This document shows positions 4,171 through 8,161 of a stretch of DNA of 32,000 nucleotides, in pieces. Within the stretch, counting starts at the first letter, position 1, and the number at the start of each line of letters is the position of its first letter. Location of the stretch: NCBI GenBank assembly GCA_022705575.1, contig JAKJED010000004.1, positions 1 through 32,000 on the forward strand. Direction: 5' to 3'. The notes beneath the pieces were generated by a model. The model saw nothing but the letters and a program-made list of their open reading frames with translations, did no database searches and was not told the DNA's origin. The stretch comes from Patescibacteria group bacterium. GTDB lineage: Bacteria; Patescibacteriota; Minisyncoccia; RBG-13-40-8-A. The position numbers and the translations under genes are program-made.

Positions 4171-4398
4171 ATGTGTTTAAGTGTTCCTGTTAAGATATTA
4201 GAAATAAAAAATAATAAAGCCGTTGTTGAAATAAATGGCAATAAGCAGGGAGTGGGGATTGACTTGATTCCTGAAATAAGAGAGAATGATTATTGTCTGG
4301 TTAGCAACGGTTTTGTTGTTAAAAAGATATCTGCCAAAGAAGCAGAAGAGATCTTTAAAATTTTAAAGCCCGTTAAAAACGAGGCGAAAGGAAAATAA
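4171..4398 (+). CDS. hypC: [NiFe]-hydrogenase maturation chaperone HypC/HupF family
   Basis: N-terminal MCLSVPVKILEI (the essential Cys2 motif MCL.VP), a beta-barrel-like core, DYCLVSNGFVVKKISAKEAEE matching the family C-terminal block, and 75 aa. The ATG lies 4 nt after the upstream stop. Confidence 0.8.
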   Translation: MCLSVPVKILEIKNNKAVVEINGNKQGVGIDLIPEIRENDYCLVSNGFVVKKISAKEAEEIFKILKPVKNEAKGK

Positions 4399-4403
4399 AC
4401 AAA

Positions 4404-4712
4404 ATGAAATACACCACGCAAGCATTAGATTTGATGAAAAAATATACAGTCAAGTGTAAAATTAATTGGGATAACTTAGATGGTACGATATTCCAATTTC
4501 ATATAGAAAGTCGTGCTAAACAATTGGGTTTAAATGAAATTACGGTTAATGTCGTAAGGTGGTATTGGTTAGAAAAGCACAACGAGGTGCTTGAAAATCT
4601 TTATGTTGCTGGCAAAATCGAAGAAGATGAAAAAAATTATTGTAAAACATTTGTTAAAAACAGAGAAGTGTTTCATAGAGATGAGTTTATTGAAAAATTG
4701 GAGGGCGTATAA
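4404..4712 (+). CDS. Hypothetical protein (102 aa), no recognisable family
   Basis: Clean ORF 5 nt after the hypC stop, with coding-like composition. It has only 2 Cys and no TM segment or signal peptide. A hairpin plus T-run follows it. Confidence 0.55.
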   Translation: MKYTTQALDLMKKYTVKCKINWDNLDGTIFQFHIESRAKQLGLNEITVNVVRWYWLEKHNEVLENLYVAGKIEEDEKNYCKTFVKNREVFHRDEFIEKLEGV

Positions 4713-4740
4713 AAATTAATATCGCCCTCTTTTAATTTTT
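4701..4740 (+). terminator. Rho-independent terminator overlapping the stop codon of the 102-aa ORF
   Basis: GAGGGCG (4701-4707) pairs with CGCCCTC (4723-4729) across a 15-nt loop, followed by TTTTAATTTTT. Confidence 0.55.
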
Positions 4741-4748
4741 GCTATAAT
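4740..4748 (+). promoter_or_regulatory. Extended -10 (TGcTATAAT) 6 nt upstream of the small-subunit ATG, implying a leaderless transcript
   Basis: TGCTATAAT-ataaat-ATG(4755). There is no Shine-Dalgarno sequence, and it lies directly after the terminator hairpin. Confidence 0.5.
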
Positions 4749-4754
4749 ATAAAT

Positions 4755-5531
4755 ATGATTGAAATAAAAAGAAAACCAGTAATCGCAATTTTATCCTTAA
4801 CCTGCTGTGAAGGTTGCCAGGTTGCGATTTTTGATTTAGGTGAAAGGTTCCTAGAATTTTTAACTAAAGTAAATATTGGAGATTTTAGATTGGCCGAAGA
4901 TTTGCCCGATGTTGATAAATACGACATCGCAATCGTTGAAGGAACAGCAATTACTAAAGAGCAAAAAAGAAAACTTAAAATAATCAGAAAAAAATCAAAA
5001 ATTGTCGTTGCCATTGGAGCTTGCGCTTTGCTCGGAGGTCCGCAGGAAATAAAAGATTACCGAGGAGATAAAAAAGCATTGATTAGGCAGATTTATCCGA
5101 ATGTAAGAGGAATTAATAATCCAAATGTGAAATCAATTAAAGAAATGATAAAAGTTGATTATGAAATTCCCGGATGTCCGATAAATAAGGAAGAATTTTT
5201 CAGAATTATAAACGAGATTTTGGAAAATAAAATTCCAAAAATAGAACAAAAGTCGGTTTGTGAAGAATGCGTCAGAAAAAACAAAATGTGCTTGCTTTTG
5301 ATTGGGAAGCCGTGTTTGGGAGCAATAACTTTGGCTGGTTGCGGAGCGCCATGCCCAAAAAATAATTTTCTTTGCGATGGATGTCGTGGACCAAAACAGA
5401 AAATAAATTTAGAGGCAATGAAAAAAGCGCTAAAAATTAAATGCCGATTGGATGATAAGAATATTGAAATGTTGTTACAAAGATTCGGCAAGCGTAATGA
5501 ATTAAAAATTAGCGATATTAATTATAAATAA
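4755..5531 (+). CDS. [NiFe]-hydrogenase small subunit, cytosolic group 3 type (delta-like)
   Basis: LTCCEGCQ, GACALLGGP and IPGCP supply the proximal-cluster Cys ligands. The C-terminal 8-Cys block CEEC..C..C..C..C..C..C fits two more 4Fe-4S clusters. There is no twin-arginine signal. Length is 258 aa. Confidence 0.85.
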   Translation: MIEIKRKPVIAILSLTCCEGCQVAIFDLGERFLEFLTKVNIGDFRLAEDLPDVDKYDIAIVEGTAITKEQKRKLKIIRKKSKIVVAIGACALLGGPQEIKDYRGDKKALIRQIYPNVRGINNPNVKSIKEMIKVDYEIPGCPINKEEFFRIINEILENKIPKIEQKSVCEECVRKNKMCLLLIGKPCLGAITLAGCGAPCPKNNFLCDGCRGPKQKINLEAMKKALKIKCRLDDKNIEMLLQRFGKRNELKISDINYK

Positions 5532-5591
5532 CATGCAAATTTACAAATATTGGTAAATTAGTCTTAATTAATAATTAGTATTGAGTTTTGT

Positions 5592-6872
5592 ATGAAGCTA
5601 AGAATAGATCATATTGCAAAAATTGAAGGACATGCGAGTTTTACCGCTGACATTGTCAACGGAGATGTGCGTGCAGCAAAAATAAAAATTGAAGAAGGCG
5701 CACGGTTGTTTGAAGGAATTATGCAAGACAGAAAAGATGAAGAAATTCCGGAGATAGGTTCACGAATTTGTGGAGTGTGCCCGGTTGCGCACAGTTTTGC
5801 CGGATTTAAAGCAATTGAAAAAGCATATAATATTGAAGTTGCAGAGACGGCATTGTCTTTAAGAAAATTAATGGCACTGGGTCAGTTGATAAATAGTCAT
5901 GCTTTGCATTTATTTTTCTTTTCTTTGTCCGACTTTTTTGGATTTAAAAGTGATTTGCAATTAATTAATGCTTATCCGGAAAAAACCAATGACGCAGTTA
6001 AAATTAGGGATTTGGGCAATAGGTTGGTTGAAATAATCGGTGGGCGTTCCGTGCATCCTTTAACTCCATGTATTGGTGGAATAAGTAAAGCGCCGGATAT
6101 AGATGAATTAAAACAAATTTTGAATGACTTTCAAAATAATTTGGAATTGGCAGTTAAATTAGGAGAATTGTTTGTTGATTTAAAATATCCTGAATTTGAA
6201 AGAAAAACGACTTTTGTTTCTTTTTATAACCCAAACGAATATGCAATTTATGACGGACAGATTAGGGTTGACGATAAATTAATGCGTCAAGAAGAATTTG
6301 CGTCTTTAATAAAAGAAATTCAAAAAGACAATGACCCCGCAAAGAGAAGTTATTTTGCAGACAAAACTTATATGGTTGGCGCTTTGGCGCGATTAAATAA
6401 TCACGGTTATCAGTTAAATCGATATGCAAAAGAATTATTGAAAAAATCAGAATTGAAATTTCTTGTCTCGCCGAATAGCGGATTATGTTATAATCCTTTT
6501 TATAATATTTTGGCGCAGGCGATTGAGGTAGTGCACTGTTTTGAAGAAGCAATTAAAATTTTAAGTGAGTTGATTAAAGAAGATAAAATTGAAATCGTGG
6601 AAACAAAAACACAAAATAGAACAGGTGAGGGATTGGGAGCTTTTGAAGCACCGAGAGGGTTGTTGTTTTATGATGTTAAAATTAAAGAGGGAATTGTAGA
6701 AAAAGTGAATATTATTTCTCCAACTTGCCAAAATCTTGCAAATTTAGAAGCGGATTTGGAAGAATTTGAACATATGAATGGTTTTGATAATTTAAACACT
6801 GACGAACGTAAAGAAAAAATTAAAATGTTAATCAGGGCGTATGATCCGTGTGTAACATGCGCCGTTCATTGA
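5592..6872 (+). CDS. [NiFe]-hydrogenase large (catalytic) subunit, group 3 type
   Basis: N-terminal IEGHA, the L1 motif RICGVCPVAH and the L2 motif DPCVTCAVH immediately followed by TGA. The 426-aa length is typical of group 3 alpha subunits. Confidence 0.9.
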   Translation: MKLRIDHIAKIEGHASFTADIVNGDVRAAKIKIEEGARLFEGIMQDRKDEEIPEIGSRICGVCPVAHSFAGFKAIEKAYNIEVAETALSLRKLMALGQLINSHALHLFFFSLSDFFGFKSDLQLINAYPEKTNDAVKIRDLGNRLVEIIGGRSVHPLTPCIGGISKAPDIDELKQILNDFQNNLELAVKLGELFVDLKYPEFERKTTFVSFYNPNEYAIYDGQIRVDDKLMRQEEFASLIKEIQKDNDPAKRSYFADKTYMVGALARLNNHGYQLNRYAKELLKKSELKFLVSPNSGLCYNPFYNILAQAIEVVHCFEEAIKILSELIKEDKIEIVETKTQNRTGEGLGAFEAPRGLLFYDVKIKEGIVEKVNIISPTCQNLANLEADLEEFEHMNGFDNLNTDERKEKIKMLIRAYDPCVTCAVH

Positions 6873-6873
6873 T

Positions 6874-7131
6874 ATGCACGATATGCATTTGGCGGAGCAG
6901 ATATTAAAAATTGTTCTGGAACACGCCGAGAAAAACAATTTTAAGCAGATTAAAAAAATCGAGCTGGAACTCGGTTCAATTTTAGAGCACGGAGAATACA
7001 TTTCTCCAGAAAATTTGATTTTTAATTTTAAATTACTTTCTAAAAATACTTCCGCTGAAAATGCAGAATTAAATATTGAAAAAGTTTCCGGCGATGATTG
7101 GAAACTTGTTTCTATGGAGGGAGGTGAGTAG
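6874..7131 (+). CDS. hypA: HypA-like nickel metallochaperone lacking the zinc-finger domain (85 aa)
   Basis: It begins MHDMHLAEQILKIV (compare the HypA Ni-binding MHE + LA..I) and ends GDDWKLVSMEGGE (compare HypA G.EL.I.S.E). It contains no Cys at all, so both CxxC pairs are missing. The ATG is 1 nt after the large-subunit TGA. Confidence 0.65.
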   Translation: MHDMHLAEQILKIVLEHAEKNNFKQIKKIELELGSILEHGEYISPENLIFNFKLLSKNTSAENAELNIEKVSGDDWKLVSMEGGE

Positions 7132-7147: not shown

Positions 7148-8161
7148 TTATTTTAATGTGGTTCTAACAATTTTTTTGTGGCCGTTAAGAAAATCTTTTG
7201 CCGACATTGAATTTTTGCCCTCCAGTTGGAGGGTTTTTAAAATTAAAATGCCATTGCCGGTTTGGACGGCAAGATTTCCTTGATCTGTAAGGAATGTGTT
7301 GCCAATCCCTTTGATTTCCCCTTGAGTTCCCTCCATCGACGGATTATTCGAAGGGTTATCCATGGGGCTACCTAAAGAGTTCGAAGGGGATTCAATGTTT
7401 GCCTCTAATATTTTTAAAACCTTACCATTGAAATCCGTATAACTTTCCGGCCATTCTTGAAACGCCCGAATTTGACAATCAATTTTTTCCGCTGATTTGT
7501 TCCAATCAATTTTTCCATCTTCTTTTCTAATCAACTTGCAAAGAGTTGCCTGCGAATGGTCTTGTTCTTGTGGTTTGATTTTTCCATCAATATAATCCGG
7601 CAGAACTTTAATTAAAAGTTTTGCACCTAAATCAGAAAGTTGTTTTGATAATTCTGTATATGTCGGTTTATTGGAAATTGAAAATTGTAAATTAGAAATT
7701 ATTTGACCATGATCCATTTCTGCGTCCATAATCATTAAACAAACCCCTGTTTCTTTTTCGCCATTTAATATAACTGATTGGATAGGGGATGCACCTCGAT
7801 ATTTTGGCAAAAGTGAGGGGTGAATGTTTAAAGCTTTATATTTTGGTATGTCCAAAATTTCTTGGGGAATAATTTGGCCAAAAGCAGTCAAGATTATTAA
7901 ATCCGGATTCAAATTCTTAATTTTAGCCACCCATTCGGGTTTTCTGATTTTATCAGGCTGTAGAACCATTAATTTGGCCTCTGTAGCCCATTTTTTGACA
8001 GGAGAGGGGGAAAGTACCTGTTTTCTGCCAATGGGCTTATCAGGGGCTGTAACCACTGTTATTATCTCAAATTGATCTTTAAGAGAATCATAAAATTTAC
8101 GAAAAATGCTTTCCGCAAATTCCGGCGTCCCCATTAAAATTGTTCTAATTTTATTTTGCAT
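7148..8161 (-). CDS. fmt: Methionyl-tRNA formyltransferase
   Basis: ILMGTPEFA, NIHPSLLPKYRGASPIQ and the C-terminal LQLEGKNSMSAKDFLNG match Fmt family blocks. It overlaps the def stop by 11 nt. Confidence 0.9.
   Translation of the reverse strand: MQNKIRTILMGTPEFAESIFRKFYDSLKDQFEIITVVTAPDKPIGRKQVLSPSPVKKWATEAKLMVLQPDKIRKPEWVAKIKNLNPDLIILTAFGQIIPQEILDIPKYKALNIHPSLLPKYRGASPIQSVILNGEKETGVCLMIMDAEMDHGQIISNLQFSISNKPTYTELSKQLSDLGAKLLIKVLPDYIDGKIKPQEQDHSQATLCKLIRKEDGKIDWNKSAEKIDCQIRAFQEWPESYTDFNGKVLKILEANIESPSNSLGSPMDNPSNNPSMEGTQGEIKGIGNTFLTDQGNLAVQTGNGILILKTLQLEGKNSMSAKDFLNGHKKIVRTTLK

Follow-up and report, generated by a model that had tools for sequence, protein, structure and literature searches.

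Catalytic subunits without adjacent electron-transfer subunits in a group 3b-like [NiFe]-hydrogenase locus of Candidatus Portnoybacteria

The closest described relatives of the enzyme considered here are cytosolic [NiFe]-hydrogenases of group 3b, among them SHI and SHII of Pyrococcus furiosus and the cytosolic NiFe hydrogenase of Thermococcus kodakarensis (9nez, 9e15, 5yxy), which are alpha-beta-gamma-delta tetramers working on NADP(H). We analysed a 32-kb stretch of contig JAKJED010000004.1 (assembly GCA_022705575.1), hereafter the window, whose coordinates are used unless a locus label precedes them. A locus at 4171-7131 of the window encodes the large (alpha) and small (delta) subunits of a [NiFe]-hydrogenase, with no beta or gamma beside them. 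The same large subunit, identical in sequence, carries the NCBI label Candidatus Portnoybacteria, within the candidate phyla radiation (CPR, or Patescibacteria); it occurs on 44 contigs, of which the longest is 150 kb. The window enzyme resembles the Pyrococcus and Thermococcus enzymes in its full-length alpha, the 12 cluster cysteines of its delta, its cytosolic character and its subunit sizes. It differs from them in lacking beta and gamma, and its alpha has no residue past the final histidine, where P. furiosus alpha has 4.

Bare heterodimers have counterparts in other settings. Periplasmic two-subunit [NiFe]-hydrogenases of group 1 reduce soluble cytochrome c3; they are exported by the Tat pathway, have larger subunits and need a C-terminal endopeptidase. 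Though they belong to a different group, the logic is shared, namely a bare dimer whose distal cluster serves an unlinked soluble carrier. A closer likeness was made by engineering: when only PF0893-PF0894 (delta and alpha of SHI) were expressed, the resulting dimer was highly active with methyl viologen and made no use of NADPH (Hopkins et al., 2011, PMC3200332). This dimer has the same two subunits as the window enzyme and no diaphorase module, but it is an artificial, thermophilic construct with less stability than the tetramer, whereas the Portnoybacteria enzyme is natural, under selection and more basic in its delta.

Within the CPR, two types of 3b-related enzyme have been distinguished. 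Those named hyd1 have beta/gamma nearby and a small subunit of ~250 amino acids (aa), while those named hyd2 have a truncated small subunit (mean 164 aa), no beta/gamma nearby, a long branch and an unknown electron partner (Jaffe et al., 2020, PMC7304191). In some hyd1 genomes beta/gamma were “not detected at all,” and the choice between incompleteness and loss was left open (Jaffe et al., 2020, PMC7304191). By the size of its delta, the adjacent hypC and its nesting in our own neighbor-joining tree, the window enzyme is assigned to hyd1; the co-located beta/gamma of that type are absent, and the locus is an exception of the kind noted in that study. It shares with hyd2 a CPR 3b-related origin and the lack of adjacent beta/gamma, but the window small subunit, at 258 aa and with the motifs of all three clusters, is full-length, which rules out hyd2. 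Four-subunit enzymes have been described from Berkelbacteria and Moranbacteria (PMC10811913), and it is among CPR four-subunit loci that the window enzyme is nested in our tree.

Open reading frames (ORFs) were taken from a six-frame list and domains from Pfam and NCBIfam profiles. The alpha gene (5592-6872, + strand, 426 aa; Pfam NiFeSe_Hases) carries KIEGH, RICGVCPVAH and DPCVTCAVH, and both Ni-Fe CxxC pairs are present. The delta gene (4755-5531, + strand, 258 aa; Pfam Oxidored_q6) encodes 14 cysteines in total. Twelve of them (C18, C21, C90, C141, C169, C172, C180, C188, C197, C201, C208 and C211) are matched in the alignment by cluster cysteines of SHI delta from P. furiosus, and these ligands cover the proximal, medial and distal [4Fe-4S] clusters. 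Delta, whose N-terminus is MIEIKRKPVIAILSL, has no twin-arginine (RR) export signal, and an exported group 1 enzyme was ruled out for want of such a signal. An earlier note on this DNA, drawn from the sequence alone, had reported 12 cysteines for three clusters, no Tat signal and the motifs RICGVCPVAH and DPCVTCAVH, and had proposed a cytosolic group 3 hydrogenase. All of these readings stand, and profile and PDB scores narrow the last of them to a 3b-like enzyme.

The best NCBIfam models were ShyA and HydA for alpha (259 and 253 bits, vs. 157 for VhuA and 132 for FrhA) and ShyD and HydD for delta. Against the PDB, alpha matched SHI alpha over its full length (238.6 bits, E = 1.2e-69), with Mvh at 164, Hox at 116-143 and Frh at ~90-140 bits, and the best match of delta was P. 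furiosus SHI delta (E = 5.6e-34). On these family-profile and PDB scores the hydrogenase is placed as cytosolic and group 3b-like; groups 3a, 3c and 3d scored lower than 3b and were rejected. Neither subunit reached the NCBIfam equivalog cutoffs (for alpha, 259 vs. 700 for ShyA and 253 vs. 880 for HydA; for delta, 136 vs. 460 and 133 vs. 500 for ShyD/HydD), and scores this far under the cutoffs indicate a distant member of group 3b. Among the characteristics of that group, the L1/L2 motifs and a three-cluster small subunit without a signal peptide were found here, while co-encoded beta and gamma were not. The proximal motif of delta, LTCCEGCQ, also holds an extra cysteine, C17, beside ligand C18 (4803-4808). 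This residue is invariant in 16 of 16 aligned CPR small subunits from two- and four-subunit loci, and P. furiosus has TSCYGCQ.

The stop codon of alpha follows directly after the final His of DPCVTCAVH (6846-6872). All CPR-type alphas, from two- and four-subunit loci alike (36 loci), stop at the His of DPCxxCxxH, and more distant 3b alphas (our loci L083, L087, L090 and L091) continue for 7-9 residues beyond it. In [NiFe] maturation, a large subunit without a C-terminal extension needs no endopeptidase step. Since the window alpha ends on this His there is no extension to cleave, which implies maturation without an endopeptidase.

Genes for beta (HydB/AsrA-like) and gamma (HydG/AsrB-like) are absent from the window and from ~8.5 kb beyond each end. 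They are likewise absent within 10 kb in the related loci L001, L002/L003, L008, L009, L010, L011, L095 and L097. The lack of electron-transfer partner subunits that the earlier note had seen at one locus is therefore confirmed for the window and its flanks and holds in all nine distinct organisms inspected in this two-subunit clade. The two-subunit relatives have alphas 63-77% identical to the window alpha, on contigs of up to 626 kb. Their gene order is a TPR gene, in some loci an RNaseH-like gene (PF04308), then hypC, a short or degenerate DUF6390 gene, delta, alpha, a small hypA-like gene (mini-HypA) and convergent fmt-def. In four-subunit relatives, whose alphas are 39-52% identical to that of the window, beta-gamma lie immediately upstream. 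Loci found with a beta query read, where the contig permitted, beta, gamma, (hypC), DUF6390, delta, alpha and mini-HypA. Synteny is two-subunit in all the clade members inspected, and more distant relatives keep beta-gamma upstream. A search of genome contigs with alpha returned 5 loci, too few for a taxonomic survey.

In a neighbor-joining tree of 40 large subunits, the two-subunit loci formed one clade (100 of 100 bootstraps), which is nested within the CPR loci that have four subunits. In those loci LemA-DsbA-beta-gamma follow the RNaseH-like gene; in two-subunit loci hypC comes directly after it. Because of these two positions, the gene order points to one deletion of LemA-DsbA-beta-gamma as the explanation of the two-subunit layout. 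In the window, L008 and L009, the RNaseH-like gene has additionally been lost.

Two further observations concern these neighborhoods. The RNaseH-like gene (PF04308, formerly DUF458) forms the upstream edge of both four- and two-subunit CPR loci (L001:5741-6331; L002:5995-6573; L004:12-260; L005:218-754; also L013-L016, L018 and L023). In a separate CPR lineage, with an alpha 53% identical to that of the window, locus L096 (L096:5380-10156) has delta-alpha, and the 8.9 kb preceding them contain no beta/gamma; beyond alpha, 345 bp of contig remain. This layout raises the possibility that beta/gamma loss happened more than once.

We also looked for beta genes at a distance. The protein search covered the best 120 of 465 beta homologues, and a beta scan of JGI metagenomes covered the best 80 of 441 relatives, down to 28% identity. 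Portnoybacteria-labelled proteins are present among the best 120 of 465 homologues, not one of which lies on a contig equal in length to any long contig of the two-subunit clade (150,367; 230,691; 326,327; 395,555; 522,900; 552,694 and 626,281 bp). Contigs Ga0315277_10000002 and Ga0366832_1000001 are not among the best 80 of 441 JGI beta loci. As reported Portnoybacteria genomes measure ~0.55-0.69 Mb, the clade's long contigs amount to near-complete genomes. Given that the beta matches are the best 120 of 465 and the best 80 of 441, their absence from the long contigs is supportive and not proof.

The catalytic genes show strong constraint. Within the clade, the ratio of nonsynonymous to synonymous substitution rates (dN/dS) was 0.02-0.12 for alpha, 0.04-0.09 for delta and ~0.08-0.17 for mini-HypA, with synonymous sites at or near saturation. 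The four Ni-Fe cysteines and the twelve FeS cysteines are invariant in every clade member, and more than 110 clusters (90% identity) lie at 62-100% identity to the window alpha. Such strong purifying selection on alpha and delta suggests that the enzyme is probably functional. The surface of delta has changed as well. Its net charge ranges from +4 to +18 in the two-subunit clade vs. -6 to +5 in four-subunit relatives, with the basic substitutions grouped in the segment of the medial/distal clusters (ECxRKNKxCLLLxGKPCL vs. ECQLKQNxCLLQEGxPCL) and in the C-terminal tail. We cautiously read this change as a remodelled surface where beta once docked, possibly fitting an acidic carrier. On the choice between incompleteness and loss raised by Jaffe et al. 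(2020, PMC7304191), the evidence as a whole favours, at least in this clade, a real, ancient and selected loss of beta/gamma, and not an assembly gap.

We consider it probable, though well short of certain, that the locus encodes a functional [NiFe]-hydrogenase of the cytoplasm, derived from group 3b and pared down to the catalytic alpha-delta heterodimer, which exchanges electrons with an unlinked carrier. The ancestral operon would have comprised genes for the RNaseH-like protein, LemA, DsbA, beta, gamma, HypC, DUF6390, delta, alpha and mini-HypA, and the LemA-DsbA-beta-gamma block would have been lost in one deletion. With both beta, the FeS subunit, and gamma, the one for FAD/NAD(P), gone, there would be no coupling to NAD(P)H, and the distal cluster of delta would be the only electron route, leading to an unlinked partner. 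Exposed at the surface, this [4Fe-4S] cluster could exchange electrons directly with a low-potential partner, for which we infer ferredoxin or pyruvate:ferredoxin oxidoreductase (PFOR) itself as the likeliest candidates. A fermentative cell might in this way dispose of reductant as H2, probably the direction of the reaction, or else take H2 up. Maturation would be minimal: the factors encoded nearby are HypC, a shrunken DUF6390 and a zinc-less mini-HypA, and alpha would need no proteolysis at its C-terminus.

Several observations weigh against this reading. Since the locus has no linked gene for ferredoxin, PFOR or flavodoxin, the partner named above is a guess, and the engineered SHI dimer took no electrons from ferredoxin (Hopkins et al., 2011, PMC3200332). 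None of hypB, hypD, hypE and hypF was seen in the ~50 kb examined. The charge of alpha shifts in the opposite direction to that of delta, and the delta shift may not reflect partner docking. The genome-wide absence of beta/gamma is something we infer and have not proven, and some Portnoybacteria-labelled genomes do encode beta and gamma. One of them (L007) has a classical four-subunit locus; in another (L005, GCA_016207815.1) the 10 kb after beta-gamma contain no alpha/delta, from which it follows that dispersal does occur somewhere in the group.

The other genes of the locus bear on its maturation. The order given in the earlier note (hypC, a 102-aa ORF, a terminator and -10 element, small subunit, large subunit and a hypA-like gene) agrees exactly with the ORF list. 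The first gene, hypC (4171-4398, + strand, 75 aa), scores above the cutoffs of both family models (Pfam HupF_HypC PF01455, 69.8 bits, cutoff 28.5; TIGR00074, 57.9 bits, cutoff 48). Its product begins MCLSVP, with the essential Cys2, as is characteristic of HypC/HupF chaperones. HypC is the chaperone that carries the Fe(CN)2CO unit. The gene holds the same position in all related loci.

The 102-aa ORF (4404-4712, + strand) has no Pfam or NCBIfam match and had been called unknown. The lack of a direct family match stands, but the ORF occupies the slot held in relatives by the hydrogenase-associated DUF6390, and by profile comparison it is probably a lineage-specific, shrunken derivative of that family (PF19927). 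A profile of four short forms aligned with the DUF6390 profile in hhalign (76% probability, E = 2.3e-5, 51 columns), while the single 102-aa sequence gave an insignificant match (3.6% probability). Three residues, C18, C80 and H91, never vary among the short forms and correspond in the alignment to the Cys of CGP, the Cys of CRI and the His of FHW in DUF6390; the PHH motif is lost. Nine representative homologues of the short form were found among 1.84 billion proteins. Reduction appears graded across the clade, with DUF6390 proteins of ~199-205 aa that have lost the CGP and PHH motifs in L001 and L010, and short forms of 102-128 aa in L002, L009, L011, L095, L097 and the window.

Full-length DUF6390 proteins are ~245 aa long and conserve CGP, PHHxFHV, D-x-CRIGWG and FHW. 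In a confident AlphaFold model (pLDDT 88, pTM 0.88), the N-terminal domain is helical and the C-terminal one is a HypC-like OB domain. Of the hydrogenase-related structures, T. kodakarensis HypC (2z1c_B; target TM-score 0.70, root-mean-square deviation 2.2 Å, 25% identity) resembles the OB domain most closely; by E-value, ribosomal S17 OB folds outrank it. DUF6390 is probably a maturation factor. Three side observations concern the family. The helical domain holds CGP and PHHxFHV, and the OB domain holds an internal D-x-CRIGWG. DUF6390 accompanies CPR 3b hydrogenases almost without exception, its gene directly preceding that of the small subunit (27 loci; L007:4803-5534, L008:9273-9995). In L008 (L008:7408-11254), sister to L009, no short ORF follows hypC and an intact 240-aa DUF6390 lies between delta and alpha, an arrangement that suggests recombination with, or re-acquisition from, a four-subunit-type locus.

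Downstream of alpha, the hypA-like gene (6874-7131, + strand, 85 aa) gives a partial match to Pfam HypA (50.7 bits, profile positions 1-69 of 112) and 50 bits to TIGR00100 (cutoff 88.1). The protein keeps the Ni-binding-type start MHDMH and contains no cysteine, and without cysteine it cannot have the zinc domain and site of true HypA. What had been called hypA-like is thus related to HypA in part and is not a true HypA. It belongs to a CPR mini-HypA family of 75-105 aa with a conserved EHG motif, encoded downstream of alpha in 30 loci (e.g., L007:8259-8492). The start MHD[LFWMI][HY] is found in 30 of 30 loci; 24 of the 30 proteins have no Cys, and zinc-binding CxxC pairs are absent. Family members fall short of the equivalog cutoff for HypA.

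A terminator-like hairpin and an extended -10 element (TGCTATAAT) lie at 4701-4748 (+ strand), identified by reading the sequence, folding and comparison across loci. The stem pairs GAGGGCG (4701-4707) with CGCCCTC (4723-4729) over 7 bp around a 15-nt loop, followed by a T-run, and folds at -14.9 kcal/mol (z = -4.36 vs. shuffles). The -10 element, at 4740-4748, ends 6 nt before the small-subunit ATG. The hairpin together with TGnTATAAT 6-7 nt before the ATG recurs in five of eight related loci (L009, L001, L011, L095 and L097), and a sixth, L002, has a plain TATAAT at that position. As these loci are saturated at synonymous sites, the combination can be regarded as a conserved feature. A generic promoter/terminator scan did not pick up the hairpin, owing to its 15-nt loop, and found promoter matches no more often than chance; by fold, direct reading and recurrence in relatives, both elements described in the earlier note are real. 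With the -10 element so close to the ATG, the arrangement suggests a conserved leaderless delta-alpha-hypA transcript. As a separate observation, no Shine-Dalgarno sequence precedes the small-subunit ATG (4740-4757, and the equivalent position in L001, L009, L011, L095 and L097).

The flanks are as follows. Upstream, 4 nt separate hypC from the end (4166) of a gene whose product is an 807-aa TPR protein. That gene had been described as an O-antigen-ligase/TPR gene; Pfam supports the TPR part, and as the protein has TPR matches only, an O-antigen-ligase domain is not confirmed. Downstream, convergent fmt (7148-8161, - strand) has its stop 16 nt past the hypA stop, and both of these spacings are as previously reported. 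The window has a guanine-cytosine content of 29-37%, and its own contig carries only housekeeping genes in the ~8.5 kb past either end.

The earlier note had left two possibilities, a stand-alone heterodimer or dispersed partner genes. The evidence favours deletion and a stand-alone enzyme without proving it, and we think it rather improbable, though worth keeping in view, that genes for beta and gamma lie at another site in the genome and that their products still join alpha-delta in a normal NAD(P)-coupled heterotetramer. The beta-gamma of L005, with no alpha/delta in the 10 kb that follow, speak for dispersal, cases with beta/gamma not immediately upstream of the small subunit are on record (Jaffe et al., 2020, PMC7304191), and our own beta evidence extends to the best 120 of 465 and the best 80 of 441 matches. 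On the other side, the clade's long contigs (up to 626 kb, near whole genomes) are not among the best beta matches listed, the gene order agrees with a clean deletion of what lay between the RNaseH-like gene and hypC, DUF6390 has decayed in most clade loci, and the charge of delta has changed near the distal cluster.

Loss of beta/gamma might instead have left a nonfunctional hydrogenase that is on its way out during genome reduction. The accessory genes do shrink stepwise: DUF6390 goes from ~245 aa through 199 aa to 102-128 aa, and the window, L008 and L009 have lost the RNaseH-like gene. Nor is any hypB/D/E/F nearby. A relic would hardly be expected to keep its frames intact with all 12 FeS and 4 Ni-Fe cysteines, to show alpha dN/dS of 0.02-0.12 at saturated synonymous sites, to persist in the >110 clusters counted above and to conserve its promoter and terminator architecture, and we regard such decay as unlikely indeed. 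Still harder to credit is a regulatory, H2-sensing or non-energetic role (e.g., redox poising) like that of the two-subunit cytosolic group 2b sensors. Sensory hydrogenases are cytosolic, consist of two subunits and have a large subunit that lacks a C-terminal extension, and the window enzyme shares these features. However, its sequence similarity is clearly to group 3b, the absent extension is common to all four-subunit CPR relatives, and none of the loci has a linked gene for a histidine kinase, a PAS protein or a regulator.

Some CPR loci suggest how far such a system could be reduced. In several CPR [NiFe] loci, a HypC::HydE fusion (TIGR03956, 284.5 bits, cutoff 254.6) is followed by HydG (TIGR03955, 565 bits, cutoff 312). 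The pair occurs at L005:5524-8194, L006:5413-8083, L038:12000-14644 and L096:5380-8091, and none is found in the window; it lies between gamma and delta in L038 and directly upstream of delta-alpha in L096. These [FeFe]-type maturases may supply an Fe(CO)(CN) unit to the CPR [NiFe] enzyme by a hybrid route, and we found no report of HydG/HypC::HydE-type maturases for CPR [NiFe] enzymes in the literature searched. It is conceivable, although we doubt it, that the window locus belongs to a self-sufficient, minimised system in which the bare alpha-delta enzyme is wired to a fermentative oxidoreductase or ferredoxin, with no endopeptidase and with miniaturised factors. Such a system would possibly do without the canonical HypDEF pathway, given that in related CPR loci the [NiFe] operon itself includes HydG and a HypC::HydE fusion. 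If true, no smaller natural gene set for making and operating a [NiFe] hydrogenase would be known.

Returning to the alpha-delta enzyme with an unlinked carrier, the earlier note's description of an unusual minimal module is borne out as to the two-subunit locus; its novelty is less than had been assumed, since the absence was already noted (Jaffe et al., 2020, PMC7304191). New here are the monophyletic loss, the single-deletion synteny, the purifying selection, the changes in delta, the decay of DUF6390 and the conserved promoter and terminator. We found no paper describing this two-subunit clade, and literature searches on Portnoybacteria hydrogenases and on DUF6390 returned nothing specific. 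In genome-based reconstructions of metabolism, group 3b is treated as an NAD(P)-coupled tetramer. A dimer-only lineage would accordingly be mis-annotated as having an “NADPH-dependent sulfhydrogenase,” when its hydrogen metabolism would be tied to ferredoxin or PFOR. The enzyme would also be a natural version of the minimal P. furiosus hydrogenase made by engineers, from a mesophile, with no C-terminal processing and very small accessory proteins, and would be a candidate for heterologous H2-producing modules.

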